From: a virus | IMG/VR virus record: IMGVR_UViG_3300045988_003949 | DNA: 5,937 nucleotides | Reading direction: 5' to 3' (one strand) | Shown: positions 1,281-5,937 of the stretch, piece by piece | How the letters are laid out: every line of letters begins with the position of its first letter | Numbering within the stretch: the first letter of the stretch is position 1 | Notes under the pieces: generated by a model | Seen by the model: only the letters and a program-made list of their open reading frames with translations | Databases searched by the model: none | Told to the model about the DNA's origin: nothing | Translations under genes and position numbers: made by a program

Positions 1281-1671
1281 ACGATACGAAGAAGGGCGAG
1301 AGCCCTTCTTTTCCAATCCTGGAGAAAAAATCTTAAAGCAATACGTTTGGACGAAGGACGAAAAAGGGGAAGAAGTGCTGCAAGAAACTGCACCAATCGA
1401 TATCCAGCAGGAAATTGAAAGCTATGCGGATGAATGTGATATCAAAAACATTGTCCGAAAAGCGAGTTTTGACCCGCAGTTCCTAAAAAGCCTGTCAGAG
1501 GGAGCACTAAACGGAACGGAAGTAGATATCACCGAGTTTCCGCAGAACATTCACGAGTATCATCGCATGATCGCAACAGCACAGGCAAACGCCATGAAAC
1601 TAAAAGAGCTGCAGGAAGCAGCAAAAGAAGAGCCTAAAACAGAGCCTAAAACAAAGGAGGAAGAAAAGTGA
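1273..1671 (+). CDS. Hypothetical 132-aa acidic, helical protein with a Lys/Glu-rich tail (KEEPKTEPKTKEEEK). From its position and composition it is a candidate internal scaffolding (VP3-like) protein.
   Basis: ATG 1273 lies 8 nt after GGGAGGG (1258-1264). The 1153 start in the ORF track would add a basic N-terminal extension in another gene's frame. The stop TGA 1669-1671 overlaps the VP1 start as GTGA. The function is inferred only from synteny (immediately upstream of the capsid gene) and composition. Confidence 0.6.
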   Translation: MNKRYEEGREPFFSNPGEKILKQYVWTKDEKGEEVLQETAPIDIQQEIESYADECDIKNIVRKASFDPQFLKSLSEGALNGTEVDITEFPQNIHEYHRMIATAQANAMKLKELQEAAKEEPKTEPKTKEEEK

Positions 1672-3341
1672 ATCGAAACAATGAACGGCACTTTAACCAG
1701 ATTCCAGAAGTGAAAGCGAGCCGAACAAGTTTTAACCGCGACCAAACGGTTTTAACAACGTTCGACTCCGGCAAGCTGATCCCATTCTATGTTGACGAAG
1801 TATTACCGGGTGATACATTCAGAGTAGACACGTCAGCAATCATCCGGATGACAACGCCAAAATATCCGGTAATGGACGATGCATTTATCGACTTCTACTA
1901 CTTCTATTGTCCTAACAGAATTCTGTGGGACAACTTCAAGTACTTTATGGGAGAAGTAGAAGCAACACCATGGATGCCAGCAAAAGAATACGCAGTACCA
2001 CAAATCGTAATCAAAGGAACGGAGGCAAAACCAGCACCAGATGAAAAATCCATTCTAGACTATATGGGAGTGCCGACTAAAATCAAAAAAGAATTTAGAA
2101 TTAACGCACTACCCGTAAGAGCGTACGTAAAAATTTGGAATGAATTTTTCAGGGATGAAAACGTAGATAACAAAGCAACACTAAGAACGGACGATGCAAA
2201 CGTAGCCTACGAATTCGGAAATGAAACTTGGGTACAGCAAGCAGAAGACGACGCCTACACCGGCGGAAACTTGTTACCTGTAAACAAATTCCACGACTAC
2301 TTCACCAGCTGTCTGCCTTATCCTCAGCGCGGGCCAGCGGTAACACTGCCGATGGAGGGAAACGCAATGATAAAAGGATTCAACGACCAAAAACTTAAAG
2401 ACCAAACAACTCTATATGCAAACAGCTTTTTTGACGGAAAAACAACACCAGCCAACATAAAAGACAAACTGTATGCAATCTCAACATACGGAGGTGAAGA
2501 ACAAGCATATGTAAACGTCGGAACAGGAGAAGGGGACGTCCATAAAGTAGTGTACCTGGGCGCAGACCTCGGGTCAGCCACAGCAACAACCATCAACGAC
2601 CTGAGAAAAGCCGTAGCAGTACAACAGTACTATGAAGCGCTGGCACGAGGTGGCAGCAGATACCGCGAACAGGTACAAGCACTGTGGGACGTGGTTATCA
2701 GTGATAAAACCGTACAAGTGCCGGAATACCTGGGCGGCGGCAGATATCATGTCAATATCAACCAAATCGTGCAGACCAGCGGACAGCAGACAAACAACGA
2801 CACGCCAATTGGCGAAACTGGTGCAATGTCAGTAACGCCAATCAACGAAAGTAGCTTTACCAAATCGTTTGAAGAGCATGGTTTTGTAATCGGTGTATGT
2901 TGTGTGCGGCACAATCGCAGTTACCAGCAGGGACTTGAACGTTTCTGGAGCAGAAAAGACAGGCTGGACTACTACGTGCCACAGTTCGCAAACTTAGGTG
3001 AACAGCCTGTAAAAAAGAAAGAAATCATGCTCACCGGCGATGCAAAGGACGAAGAAACGTTCGGGTACCAGGAAGCATGGGCAGACTATCGCATGAAACC
3101 TAACCGGGTATCTGGCAAAATGAGAAGTAATGCGGTAGGAACACTGGACTTCTGGCATTATGCAGACTACTATACCCAAGAACCAACACTGTCGCAAGAC
3201 TGGATGGAAGAAGGCAAAATCGAGATTGCACGCACGCTCATCGTGCAAGATGAGCCTCAGTTCTTCGGAGCTATCCGCATAGCAAACAAAACCACAAGAC
3301 GGATGCCATTGTACAGTGTACCGGGCTTGTACAAACTGTAA
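1668..3341 (+). CDS. VP1: Major capsid protein VP1 (Microviridae F-protein family), 557 aa.
   Basis: The N-terminus HFNQIPEVKASRTSFNRDQTVLTTFDSGKLIPFYVDEVLPGDTF is the hallmark Phage_F capsid signature. Its size is typical of gokushovirus VP1. The GTG start lies 7 nt after AAGGAGG (1654-1660). Confidence 0.93.
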   Translation: MNRNNERHFNQIPEVKASRTSFNRDQTVLTTFDSGKLIPFYVDEVLPGDTFRVDTSAIIRMTTPKYPVMDDAFIDFYYFYCPNRILWDNFKYFMGEVEATPWMPAKEYAVPQIVIKGTEAKPAPDEKSILDYMGVPTKIKKEFRINALPVRAYVKIWNEFFRDENVDNKATLRTDDANVAYEFGNETWVQQAEDDAYTGGNLLPVNKFHDYFTSCLPYPQRGPAVTLPMEGNAMIKGFNDQKLKDQTTLYANSFFDGKTTPANIKDKLYAISTYGGEEQAYVNVGTGEGDVHKVVYLGADLGSATATTINDLRKAVAVQQYYEALARGGSRYREQVQALWDVVISDKTVQVPEYLGGGRYHVNINQIVQTSGQQTNNDTPIGETGAMSVTPINESSFTKSFEEHGFVIGVCCVRHNRSYQQGLERFWSRKDRLDYYVPQFANLGEQPVKKKEIMLTGDAKDEETFGYQEAWADYRMKPNRVSGKMRSNAVGTLDFWHYADYYTQEPTLSQDWMEEGKIEIARTLIVQDEPQFFGAIRIANKTTRRMPLYSVPGLYKL

Positions 3342-3352
3342 GAAAGGAGGAA

Positions 3353-3379: not shown

Positions 3380-4243
3380 ATGGGGGCATTATCAGGATTC
3401 TTAACAGCGCTAAACGTAGCAGGAAACGTAGCAAATACGGTCGGAACAATCGCCGGAGCAGCAAAAAACGTTGCTGGAGCTTTTGGCGGATGGGGTCAGA
3501 CAGGCAACAGCCAAAGCCAGGGCGGAAGCACAAGCCAAGGTGGTGGACACTCAGAGAGCGGAAGCCAAGCAGGCACAAACATTCAGCAAGTAAACGACTG
3601 GCTAAAACAAGCATACGCATACCAAGGGCAAGAAGCAGCCATGCAAGGTAAATACAACAGTCAAAGCATGTTAAAACAGATGGGTTACAACACCTTACAA
3701 GCAATCATGCAGGGCGTATATAACCACATTGAAAACAGCGTAGCGATGAACTACAACAGTGCAGAGGCACTAGCAAACCGTGAATGGCAAGAGCACATGT
3801 CAAGCACAGCATACCAGCGTGCAGTTGAAGATATGAAGAAAGCCGGCTTAAATCCGATTTTGGCATTTTCTAACGGAGGTGCAAGCACACCAGGCGGATC
3901 TGCAGGAACAATTAGTGGGGCAAGTATGGGACTTGCAAGCAGTAGCGCACTAGGAGTAAGCAGAAGCGGTGGATTTGTACCGAATGCATACTCAAGTTCA
4001 AGCTGGAGTAAAAGTGACTGGTACAACGCCGCAGAAAGCTGGCAGCAGATGCTCAGTTCAACACACATGACGCCATACGGACTGCAAAAGGCGCTTACAG
4101 AAGTAGGAAGCAACACAAGCAAAGCCATTACGGATGCAACAGCAAAGGCAGAAAAGGGCGCAAGACAGAGCAGAAGCATGAAACCGCAAGATAAAACGGG
4201 AAGCTACGGAGAAAAACGAAAGCCGGGTGATTATTTAAAATGA
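3380..4243 (+). CDS. VP2: Minor capsid / DNA pilot protein (VP2, phiX H-like), 287 aa.
   Basis: A Gly/Ala-rich, low-complexity N-terminal half (MGALSGFLTALNVAGNVANTVGTIAGAAKNVAGAFGGWGQTGNSQSQGG...). It sits immediately downstream of VP1, as in gokushoviruses. Its stop overlaps the VP4 start as ATGA. Confidence 0.75.
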   Translation: MGALSGFLTALNVAGNVANTVGTIAGAAKNVAGAFGGWGQTGNSQSQGGSTSQGGGHSESGSQAGTNIQQVNDWLKQAYAYQGQEAAMQGKYNSQSMLKQMGYNTLQAIMQGVYNHIENSVAMNYNSAEALANREWQEHMSSTAYQRAVEDMKKAGLNPILAFSNGGASTPGGSAGTISGASMGLASSSALGVSRSGGFVPNAYSSSSWSKSDWYNAAESWQQMLSSTHMTPYGLQKALTEVGSNTSKAITDATAKAEKGARQSRSMKPQDKTGSYGEKRKPGDYLK

Positions 4244-5259
4244 GTTGTTACAAGCCATTAATAAGGCTGTACAACCCGGAAAACAAAGATATAAGCGGGC
4301 GGGTGTATTCACTTGCCCGCTTTTCTGAAATATCGGGAAAACAGCTCAAATATGAAGATTTGATGTACAGAAAAAACATCATGTTGATACCATGCGGGCA
4401 GTGCATCGGATGCAGAATCAGACAAAGAGAGGACTGGACAACACGAATAGAATTAGAAGCACGAGACTATCCAAGAGAAGAAGTATGGTTTATAACATTA
4501 ACCTATGACGATGATCATGTACCAGGCATGATAGTAAACACAGGCGAAATCATGCGAAAAGTGCAATACGTCTGGAAACCGGGAGAGAAGCGTCCTGAAA
4601 GCGTCCAAACTTTGCTATATCCTGACATTCAAAAGTTCTTAAAACGCCTCAGAAAGGCTTACAGGGGCAAATTACGCTATTTTGTGGCAGGAGAGTACGG
4701 AGAACAGACAGCAAGGCCACATTATCATATGATACTGTATGGATGGGAACCAACAGATCTAGAACACTTGTACAAGATACAGCACAACGGATATTTTACA
4801 AGTAAATGGCTAGGAAACCTATGGGGAATGGGTCAAATACAGATAGCACAAGCAGTACCGGAAACATATAGATATGTTGCAGGGTACGTGACGAAAAAAA
4901 TGTACGAAATTGACGGTCAAAAGGCAAACGCGTACTATGAACTAGGGCAACAAAAGCCTTTTGCATGTATGAGTCTTAAACCAGGCTTAGGAGATCACTA
5001 TTACCAAGAGCACAAAGAAGAGATCTGGAGACAAGGCTACATCCAATGCACAAACGGCAAGCGCGCACAAATTCCACGCTATTATGAAAAAATGATGGAA
5101 GCTGAAAACCCACAAAGATTGTGGAGAATTAAACAGAACAGACAGGCGGCGGTAATCGCGGAAAACCGGCTAAAATACGAAAACGCAGACTTTGAAGAGC
5201 AGTGTAAAACGAAAGAGAGAGTGACAAGGAAGCAAATGAAGAAGAGAGGGACACTTTAA
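4240..5259 (+). CDS. VP4: Rolling-circle replication initiator VP4 (phiX A-like HUH endonuclease), 339 aa.
   Basis: Cys cluster PCGQCIGC (nt 4393-4413). RCR motif 1 WFITLTYDD (about 4486-4512). Motif 2 RPHYHMILYG, with the HUH histidines at about 4720-4728. Motif 3 YRYVAGYVTKK, with the Y-x3-Y-x2-K catalytic tyrosines at about 4867-4899. Confidence 0.93.
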   Translation: MSCYKPLIRLYNPENKDISGRVYSLARFSEISGKQLKYEDLMYRKNIMLIPCGQCIGCRIRQREDWTTRIELEARDYPREEVWFITLTYDDDHVPGMIVNTGEIMRKVQYVWKPGEKRPESVQTLLYPDIQKFLKRLRKAYRGKLRYFVAGEYGEQTARPHYHMILYGWEPTDLEHLYKIQHNGYFTSKWLGNLWGMGQIQIAQAVPETYRYVAGYVTKKMYEIDGQKANAYYELGQQKPFACMSLKPGLGDHYYQEHKEEIWRQGYIQCTNGKRAQIPRYYEKMMEAENPQRLWRIKQNRQAAVIAENRLKYENADFEEQCKTKERVTRKQMKKRGTL

Positions 5260-5278
5260 CAGTGTCATGGTGTCACCT

Positions 5279-5310
5279 AGCCCAGTACCTATCAAGTAAG
5301 GTACTGGGCT
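5279..5310 (+). other. Perfect 11-bp stem-loop: AGCCCAGTACC, loop TATCAAGTAA, GGTACTGGGCT.
   Basis: Exact inverted repeat at 5279-5289/5300-5310 with a 10-nt loop, 20 nt after the VP4 stop. The loop motif TATCAAGTA recurs at 5350-5358. Confidence 0.6.
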
Positions 5311-5370
5311 ATTGCCATTTAAAGGCTCCATGTATCGGACCATTCAGTTTATCAAGTAGATATACTTTAT

Positions 5371-5413
5371 CGCGCGTGCGCACGCGCGCGAAGCGCGCAC
5401 GCGCGCACGCGCG
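5371..5413 (+). other. GC-only imperfect palindrome and hairpin: CGCGCGTGCGCACGCGCGCG, AAG, CGCGCACGCGCGCACGCGCG. The stem has 18 of 20 positions paired and is built from alternating purine/pyrimidine.
   Basis: Read directly. The two 20-nt arms are nearly reverse-complementary with a 3-nt loop, and each arm is a strictly alternating Pu/Py tract that could form Z-DNA. Confidence 0.6.
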
Positions 5414-5563
5414 GCTCTTGGGCGCTATTGTTCGCAAGCTCACAAGCGCCGTATAATATATAACTTGTTGTAGGAGTAGTAGTAGAGATAGTGGAAAAGT
5501 TGAAAAGTACTAAAATTTAACGTTAAAGCGTAAATAAAAAGCAAAAAACAATGTTAAAAGTTT

Positions 5564-5592
5564 TGTTGAAAACTTGTTGAAATGTTGAAAGT
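5564..5592 (+). repeat. Iteron cluster A: three copies of TGTTGAAA(A/T/G) at 5565, 5576 and 5584. Related copies lie at 5499-5507 and 5553-5560.
   Basis: Direct repeats of the GTTGAAA core spaced 8-11 nt apart. Confidence 0.6.
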
Positions 5593-5625
5593 CCGTCAAA
5601 ATGACGAAAATCATTGTGCAACTTT

Positions 5626-5665
5626 TTGTTGAAAACCTGTTGAAAGTGTTGAAAGTGTTGAAAAC
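5626..5665 (+). repeat. Iteron cluster B: four tandem copies of TGTTGAAA(A/G)(C/T), with GTTGAAA cores at 5628, 5639, 5648 and 5657.
   Basis: TTGTTGAAAACC TGTTGAAAG TGTTGAAAG TGTTGAAAAC. The last three copies repeat every 9 nt exactly. Confidence 0.65.
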
Positions 5666-5785: not shown

Positions 5786-5814
5786 TTGACAATTGTAAAG
5801 AAATATGCTATAAT
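5786..5814 (+). promoter_or_regulatory. Consensus sigma70-type promoter: TTGACA at 5786-5791, exact 17-nt spacer, TATAAT at 5809-5814.
   Basis: Both hexamers match the consensus 6/6 with 17-bp spacing. An SD-like AGAGAGGTAAGG and an ATG at 5840 follow downstream. An AT-rich, UP-like tract and the palindrome TGATATATCA (5766-5775) lie just upstream. Confidence 0.7.
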
Positions 5815-5839: not shown

Positions 5840-5937
5840 ATGAAAAACTGTTACGAATACACAGAAAACAAAAAAGTAAAGTTCTACCGTTCAAGCATTG
5901 ATGGGCAAATCCGTTTCCCTTACACTTTCAGCAAAAA
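5840..5937 (+). CDS. 5' part of a 61-aa hypothetical protein that wraps the contig junction (MKNCYEYTENKKVKFYRSSIDGQIRFPYTFSKK...). It continues at window bases 56-143.
   Basis: ATG at 5840 lies 7-9 nt after the GAGAGGTAAGG SD and directly downstream of the consensus promoter. The frame stays open across the terminal repeat and ends at TAA 141-143, immediately before the peptidase RBS. Confidence 0.55.
   Translation, partial: MKNCYEYTENKKVKFYRSSIDGQIRFPYTFSK
5883..5937. repeat. Second copy of the 55-nt terminal redundancy, the overlap left by assembling a circular contig.
   Basis: Identical to bases 1-55. Confidence 0.9.

Follow-up and report, generated by a model that had tools for sequence, protein, structure and literature searches.

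A conserved hairpin with a phiX174-like nick core as the most likely viral-strand origin of gokushovirus-type microviruses

The hairpin immediately downstream of the Rep gene in the analyzed stretch of viral DNA (5,937 nt, hereafter the window) is, judging by sequence comparison, one copy of a cis-element common to gokushovirus-type microviruses, and we consider with moderate confidence that its most likely role is that of the viral-strand origin in rolling-circle replication. Seen this way, it would be a previously undescribed form of a known type of origin, distributed across the family. In the window the nick core of the element is on the strand complementary to all recognisable genes, and comparison with other microviruses points to repeated inversions of the element, accompanied by a change in the base composition of the genes.

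The window represents one complete circular genome of a microvirus (5,882 nt) plus 55 nt of assembly overlap (positions 1–55 are identical to 5883–5937). All its recognisable genes are on the plus strand, namely an M15-family peptidase (148–549; Pfam PF08291, E = 4e-23), which is an accessory gene reported as moving between microvirus families, a Chp2-like scaffold protein (1153–1671), the major capsid protein VP1 (1668–3341; Pfam Phage_F, E = 3e-140), a 287-aa ORF (3380–4243), and VP4/Rep (4240–5259; Pfam PF23343, E = 8e-18), an HUH endonuclease with the motifs RPHYHMILY and YRYVAGYVTKK that is presumed to act on the hairpin element. From the Rep stop codon to the next gene (ATG at 5841) there are 580 nt of non-coding sequence, and the hairpin is situated at the start of this region, beginning 19 nt past the stop codon. 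Near the other end of this region there is a perfect sigma-70 consensus promoter at 5786–5814 (TTGACA, 17 nt, TG-TATAAT; 12/12 matches), ending approximately 27 nt upstream of the ATG, with a GAGAGG/GGTAAGG Shine-Dalgarno-like stretch in between.

The segments AGCCCAGTACC (5279–5289) and GGTACTGGGCT (5300–5310) pair around TATCAAGTAA, as described in the first-pass annotation (a perfect 11-bp stem with a 10-nt loop), and the perfect pairing in fact continues by one base on each side, yielding 13-bp arms (5278–5290 and 5299–5311) and an 8-nt loop ATCAAGTA (5291–5298). The chance level was set by 200 first-order Markov simulations of the genome, in which perfect hairpins of at least 13 bp were never seen (0/200) and those of at least 11 bp were seen in 2/200, with the mean longest stem of 7.9 bp; the hairpin exceeds chance. 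The predicted folding of the 56-nt element is stable on both strands, –15.6 kcal/mol (z = –6.3) for the minus strand and –14.5 kcal/mol (z = –5.1) for the plus strand. Simulation, folding, and covariation all point to a minus-strand hairpin or cruciform at 5278–5311.

The full origin-like element, as delimited by the covariance model R1 described below, occupies 5267–5322 on the minus strand and reads 5'-TTAAATGGCAATAGCCCAGTACCTTACTTGATAGGTACTGGGCTAGGTGACACCAT-3', that is, the 5' arm, the loop TACTTGAT, the 3' arm AGGTACTGGGCTA, and then GGTGACAC. It contains the decamer TACTTGATAG at 5289–5298 (minus strand; CTATCAAGTA on the plus strand) and, 3' of the hairpin on the strand of the element, a GTGACAC box at 5270–5276 (minus strand; GTGTCAC on the plus strand), a candidate Rep-binding site. 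Close to the box are the palindrome GACACTTTAACAGTGTC (5250–5266), which extends across the stop codon of Rep, and another GTGTCA (5262–5267), so that copies of GACAC/GTGTC are spread over 5250–5276; close relatives have from one to three such copies. The form of the GTGTCA box varies among L001–L080 (Rep more than 88% identical), being CGGTGTCACC, CAGTGTCATGGTGTCACC, or, in L067, three copies. Most distant copies of the element retain (N)TGACAC, which in many other lineages is followed by inverted GTGTCA. By sequence, the TGACAC/GTGTCA repeats beside the hairpin look like an initiator-binding array.

The 9-mer TATCAAGTA is found in the window exactly twice, at 5290–5298 and 5350–5358, and five times if one mismatch is allowed, compared to 1.07 expected. 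Hence the downstream repeat noted in the first-pass annotation is exact, and the GC palindrome (5371–5413), which it was said to precede immediately, starts 12 nt after it. The second copy (5350–5358; CTACTTGATAAACTG on the minus strand) is accompanied neither by a hairpin nor by the GTGACAC box, and its surroundings form no stable hairpin (–2.2 kcal/mol, z = –1.6). Of the 70 distinct close relatives, 13 contain it exactly, 28 with one mismatch (as TATCAAATA in 25 of the 28), and 29 not at all. The duplicated 9-mer had been regarded as part of the classic architecture of nick sites; being variable or deleted in most close relatives, it does not fit this role, and the second copy seems to be a partial duplication of the nick core that has since decayed. 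The GC palindrome itself consists of G and C only and is imperfect, its 20-nt arms being 90% complementary and separated by a 3-nt spacer; many close relatives have it, and in other close relatives its position is taken by a different hairpin, GGGGTTGACTTAAAAGTCAACCCC.

The set of close relatives comprised 80 contigs with Rep 88–100% identical to that of the window, representing 70 distinct sequences. Almost all of them have, directly after Rep, GGTGTCACCTAGCC(C/A)AGTACCTATCAAGTA followed by the complementary arm, and CCTATCAAGTA is present in 69 of the 70, as is the loop copy of the 9-mer, whose conservation was to be checked according to the first-pass annotation. The lower stem in these relatives shows compensatory changes (CCCAG/CTGGG, CCAAG/CTTGG, CCTAG/CTAGG). 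The right arm, as read on the plus strand, is often imperfect near the loop (AGATAC, AGCAC, GGAC), and therefore the constraint seems to be on the sequence at one side and on pairing elsewhere. An exact search of viral contigs with AGTACCTATCAAGTA yielded many more members of the clade, with Rep identity down to 72%, as well as two very distant contigs, L128 and L130 (Rep 32–34% and VP1 28–33% identical to those of the window), that share the 15-mer, the upstream GTGTCAC, and the complementary arm. The genes of L128 and L130 are on the other strand, the coding strand being TACTTGATAGGTACTG...GTGACAC; a search for close relatives of these two contigs found none.

The covariance model R1 was built from 29 diverse copies, the window among them (alignment A2), whose Reps are approximately 32–100% identical to that of the window. 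Throughout this alignment, both TACTTGATAG (29/29) and GTGACAC are invariant, and the general form of the element on its own strand is the 5' arm, the loop with (C)TACTTGAT, the 3' arm, and (N)TGACAC. The stem, on the contrary, drifts with pairing retained: both sides have changed in 9 of 19 pairs, with such compensatory variants as GCCCAG/CTGGGC, GCCAAG/CTTGGC, GTCCAG/CTGGAC, and ACCAG/CTGGT. There are 50 doubly changed cells, compared to 11.3 in shuffled alignments (this number was reached in 0/500) and 6–12 if the pairing is slid by 1–3 columns; the respective covariation scores are 0.298, 0.113, and 0.024–0.072. The score of R1 on the window (5267–5322, minus strand), 73.6 bits with E = 7e-16, is not independent, as the window is a training sequence; copies outside the training set (L246, L268, L273, L269, L264, and others) score 36–58 bits. 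A search of Rfam produced nothing near the gathering score.

The taxonomic range of the element is wide, with R1 matches in prophages and in MAG contigs assigned to Clostridia, Alphaproteobacteria, Bacteroidia, and others. The R1 match in the Chlamydia phage Chp2 is marginal (E = 0.002; intergenic, 2894–2951), and the hairpin scan identifies the same element in Chp2 (L248) at these positions, on the coding strand. Similarly, hairpins with the TACTTGTT loop are found on the coding strand of phiMH2K (L247; approximately 3300–3345, loop CTACTTGTTG) and SpV4 (L249; approximately 510–555, loop ATTACTTGTTATA), and are intergenic in the Chp2 and phiMH2K records, where, unlike that of SpV4, the annotation allows the position to be checked. 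Thus the three classical cultured gokushoviruses all have a TACTTG(A/T)T loop. The divergent clade L234–L243 has the loop CTTCCTTGTCTAT and TGACACC directly upstream of Rep. The comparison with related microviruses, proposed in the first-pass annotation, thereby places the element in cultured phages as well as in distant contigs; almost all gokushovirus-like genomes examined contain it. Most microviruses have it upstream of Rep and in the orientation opposite to that in the window.

The reverse complement of the loop contains ACTTGATA, which, in agreement with the original observation, is identical to phiX174 4301–4308, around the annotated rep_origin at 4306. This is the core of the viral-strand origin of phiX174 (Bullavirinae), cut by protein A at CAACTTG/ATA (the slash marks the cut); 8 of 10 bases of this recognition core, namely ACTTGATA, are present in the window, on the non-coding strand. 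When the two are aligned in register, 15/30 positions match the 30-nt phiX origin, with 7/20 matches beyond the core decamer. The two phages belong to the same family with rolling-circle replication, and their initiators share the HUH and Y-x-x-x-Y-V-x-K-K motifs, RPHYHMILY and YRYVAGYVTKK of the window Rep corresponding to LHFHAVHF and FYVAKYVNKK of phiX174 protein A. By this analogy, the Rep nick is predicted at CTTG/ATA, between the minus-strand bases opposite 5293 and 5292, with the G/A junction within minus-strand 5'-CCTTACTTGATAGGTACTGGGC-3' (a longer stretch is 5'-GCCCAGTACCTTACTTGATAGGTACTGGGCTAGGTGACACC-3'). The analogy covers the core sequence and the enzyme only: the phiX174 origin is inside gene A, on the coding strand, and has no hairpin, while the element is placed in the loop of a covarying 13–18-bp hairpin, is intergenic, is flanked by TGACAC repeats, and in the clade of the window is on the non-coding strand. 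The element does not have the phiX-type layout, i.e., an in-gene origin with an AT-rich spacer, a distal binding sequence, and no hairpin.

The Rep proteins of the pC194/pUB110 family also belong to the phiX-type superfamily. Double-strand origins of these rolling-circle plasmids share the CTTGATA nick core, and the pC194 origin used with RepH contains CTTGATA (PMC7072734). These origins are plasmid rather than viral, have different flanks, and contain no TGACAC box. In origins of CRESS-DNA viruses (geminiviruses, circoviruses, nanoviruses) one likewise sees an invariant loop motif, a covarying stem, and adjacent short repeats, which in the window could bind Rep, while their nonanucleotide NANTATTAC is absent here (the window loop is ATCAAGTA / TACTTGAT), and their Rep represents a different HUH lineage, fused to an SF3 helicase and acting in eukaryotic hosts. 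In CRESS-DNA viruses, the orientation of genes relative to the virion strand varies, and ambisense or negative-sense genomes exist. Finally, hairpins described in reekeekee- and roodoodoo-microviruses lie in intergenic regions close to Rep and combine an identical loop with compensatory changes in the stem (PMC9865509); these are different clades, and the likeness to the element is by description. Olo Ndela et al. (2022) tentatively tied these hairpins to negative-strand synthesis and reported neither a nick-core similarity nor an analysis of orientation and skew (PMC9865509).

The proposal of an HUH nick site in the hairpin loop, made in the first-pass annotation, is thus strongly supported by sequence comparison as regards the invariant loop and 3' flank, the covarying stem, and the CTTG/AT core, whereas the nearby duplicate does not contribute to it. 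Moreover, the loop remains the same in phages of unrelated hosts while the stem drifts, and therefore a phage-encoded reader is favored. We have found neither a mapped nick nor a described origin for any gokushovirus in the open-access literature. One point against an origin on the minus strand is that leading-strand synthesis would proceed head-on against transcription.

The hexamer AACTTG at 5461–5466 (in ATAACTTGTTGTAGG, 5459–5473) was considered as a nick site of the plus strand because it stands at the opening of the most widely conserved non-coding block of the genome. This block is found in either orientation and lacks both a hairpin and a TGACAC context, and most microviruses with the hairpin element do not have it; this candidate was set aside. 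The block itself (5452–5665) comprises at least eight TGTTGAAA-type repeats, opening with TATAATATATAACTTGTTGTAG, and is 72–81% identical in more than 25 GenBank gokushoviruses. Its orientation varies relative to both the genes and the hairpin: it is inverted in L044, H9, H24, H26, and H29, and is on the strand of the element in L237–L241. Translations of the ORFs inside the block are of low complexity, and the block may be an array of protein-binding sites or else the other origin of replication.

The first-pass annotation had allowed that the minus-strand position of the phiX174 core may be a coincidence. This does not agree with the behavior of the element in other microviruses, where it has been inverted in several lineages and the A/T skew of the genes flips along with it. 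Independent events were scanned for with the commonest normal-orientation motif, TACTTGATGTAACTG, in 100 other microvirus contigs with recognisable Rep or VP1; the genes and the element are on the same strand in 92 of them and on opposite strands in 8. In the former, the median coding-strand skew (T–A)/(T+A) at fourfold-degenerate sites is +0.60, with T>A in 81 contigs and A>=T in 11, while in the latter the values are –0.63, –0.57, –0.60, –0.76, –0.31, –0.71, –0.76, and +0.67, that is, negative in 7/8. The association of orientation and skew yields p = 1.4e-5 by the Fisher test and p = 9e-5 by the Mann-Whitney test, both uncorrected for phylogeny. Besides these 11 contigs, exceptions to the skew rule are L415, an inverted genome with T>A, and phiMH2K, which has the element on the coding strand and yet A 0.44 and T 0.26 at fourfold sites.

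In a crude neighbor-joining tree of VP1, genomes with the opposite-strand element are found in at least five separate places, e.g., L372, L425, and L444 beside the normal L353, L367, and L370, L449 beside L357, and L472 beside L377. In these sister genomes the element occupies the same intergenic slot upstream of Rep, and its orientation alone differs. Hence, as far as base composition and these trees can tell, the A/T skew follows the strand of the element through several independent inversions.

The window itself follows the same trend. Its coding-strand fourfold frequencies are A 0.51, G 0.21, C 0.155, and T 0.12, so the complementary strand has T 0.51, C 0.21, G 0.155, and A 0.12, close to the viral strand of phiX174 (coding-strand fourfold frequencies T 0.59, C 0.20, G 0.13, A 0.09); the coding-strand T frequency is 0.50 in Chp2 and 0.65 in SpV4, both of which package their coding strand. 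ssDNA phages have been described as characteristically favoring codons that end in T, which has been ascribed to C-to-T pressure on their single strand (PMC3278643). Where the element is on the coding strand, most genomes are T-rich, e.g., the gut clade L253/L331–L352 (T 0.58–0.66, A 0.08–0.14), and T>A is observed in approximately 15/19 prophage and MAG loci. Genomes with the element on the non-coding strand (the clade of the window, the clade with 55% Rep identity, L230, L252, and L234–L245) are all A-rich (A 0.32–0.56, T 0.08–0.17). The latter form one clade in the Rep tree and therefore count as roughly one event; the inversion within the large gut clade of the window is probably single, and the independence of inversions rests on other lineages and the crude neighbor-joining trees.

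G/C skew does not flip with the element, e.g., the coding-strand C frequency is 0.49 in L377 as well as in L472, and therefore simple C-to-T deamination is not a full explanation. The polarised mutation spectrum of 52 distinct Rep genes, aimed at a G-to-A excess on the coding strand, offered 48 usable fourfold sites, a number too small for this purpose, and these sites were too saturated.

The skew would follow the element because the element would mark the strand existing as ssDNA, be it as a nick site or as a single-strand origin. The most substantial rival to the viral-strand origin is a complementary-strand (stage I) origin on the packaged strand, read by host primase, RNA polymerase, or PriA, comparable with the phiX174 n' site, the G4 origin hairpins, and the plasmid ssoA with its conserved loop. 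Such an origin is strand-specific too and equally well explains the skew following the element; moreover, invariant loops and covarying stems are how single-strand origins look, and hairpins of other clades were read in this way, with reservations, by Olo Ndela et al. (PMC9865509). We nevertheless consider it unlikely, as the same loop is retained across such hosts as Chlamydia, Spiroplasma, Bdellovibrio, and those of Clostridia, Prevotella, and Alphaproteobacteria MAGs, a breadth more easily reconciled with a reader encoded by the phage than with host priming systems, the loop agrees with the nick core of the phiX174/pC194 Rep family, which includes VP4, and the adjacent TGACAC repeat array resembles initiator-binding sites.

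Neither a terminator nor an orientation-free double-strand site would be expected to have the skew following it. The position of the hairpin shortly after the Rep stop codon suits a Rho-independent terminator of the operon ending with Rep, acting in plus-strand RNA, and T-runs indeed follow the plus-strand hairpin in the clade with approximately 55% Rep identity (TGTTTTTTA) and in some close relatives; many close relatives have GGGCTTTTGTC. The tail in the window is TTGCCATTT, and a consensus scan of the plus strand does not call the hairpin a terminator; besides, a terminator needs neither an invariant loop nor a GTGACAC box kept across Reps with approximately 32% identity, and most microviruses have the element upstream of Rep in the other orientation. 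With no T-run here and an invariant loop and flank, termination as the primary role was rejected as very improbable, and it may be a secondary function of the hairpin. A double-stranded recombination site, e.g., a dif-like attP serving lysogeny through host XerC/XerD, would be free in its orientation and hence tolerate inversion, and some gokushoviruses do integrate at dif via short non-coding motifs (PMC7062461). This we regard as the least probable reading: such a site gives no cause for the A/T skew to flip, and dif-like motifs are rare, being found in only 48 gokushovirus genomes (Kirchberger and Ochman, PMC7062461), while the element is in almost all genomes examined. A scan of 185,579 species-representative genomes (GTDB, one genome per species) identified no prophage of the clade of the window, the closest match being a 5.8-kb free-standing contig with Rep 51% identical. 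In L259, the sole prophage examined with flanks on both sides, the duplication is that of a genome in tandem and not of an att site: positions 5594–14264 of this 36-kb bacterial contig (Clostridia MAG contig CANQDP010000010.1) contain a tandem microvirus genome with a 5,173-nt period. Several ATATCTTTGCGCAAAAGCC-like repeats follow its right end and may mark the integration site. A coding explanation was also rejected, as the ORFs overlapping the region, at 5262–5456 (plus strand) and 5170–5343 (minus strand), either gave no Pfam match or were set aside, the conservation being of the kind seen for a hairpin.

With the element as the viral-strand origin, replication might proceed as follows. 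Rep (VP4) would bind the GTGACAC/GACAC repeats on the supercoiled replicative form, the inverted repeat would be extruded with its loop exposed, and one of the two Rep tyrosines (YVAGY) would cut the minus strand at CTTG/ATA. The resulting 3'-OH would prime leading-strand synthesis, and a further cut, at the site regenerated after one round, would allow the displaced strand to be circularized by ligation and packaged. Canonical microviruses displace and encapsidate their coding strand. The nick core in the window is on the strand complementary to all genes, and the displaced, encapsidated strand in its clade would be antisense. A local inversion of the element within its intergenic region is the probable source of this orientation, and other lineages of microviruses have undergone the same inversion independently.

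The minus strand is therefore probably not only the functional strand of the element but the viral strand of the window, as comparison of orientations and skews indicates, and base composition suggests that the gut clade of the window packages the antisense strand. We have found no description of a negative-sense microvirus in the open-access literature, and the possibility of antisense-packaging microviruses is, as far as we could find, unreported. In its broadest form, the hypothesis is that the dominant human- and pig-gut gokushovirus clade represented by the window, together with at least four other microvirus lineages, encapsidates the strand complementary to mRNA, and that polarity has been switched repeatedly by local inversion of a phiX-like CTTG/AT hairpin origin, the long-missing origin of gokushoviruses; we regard the chances of this for and against as evenly balanced. 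If true, the family, regarded as strictly positive-sense, would thereby gain its first negative-sense members.

Among the ssDNA phages of gut and environmental viromes, gokushoviruses are the most abundant, and the element provides a specific, family-wide origin candidate for them. If the link between orientation and skew holds, the packaged strand of any microvirus would be readable from sequence, and virion polarity would prove to be labile in the evolution of a family assumed to be positive-sense throughout. This would affect strand-specific virome library methods and quantification, mutation-bias and codon-usage models of ssDNA phages, the design of synthetic gokushovirus genomes, and the understanding of how replication, transcription, and packaging are coupled.
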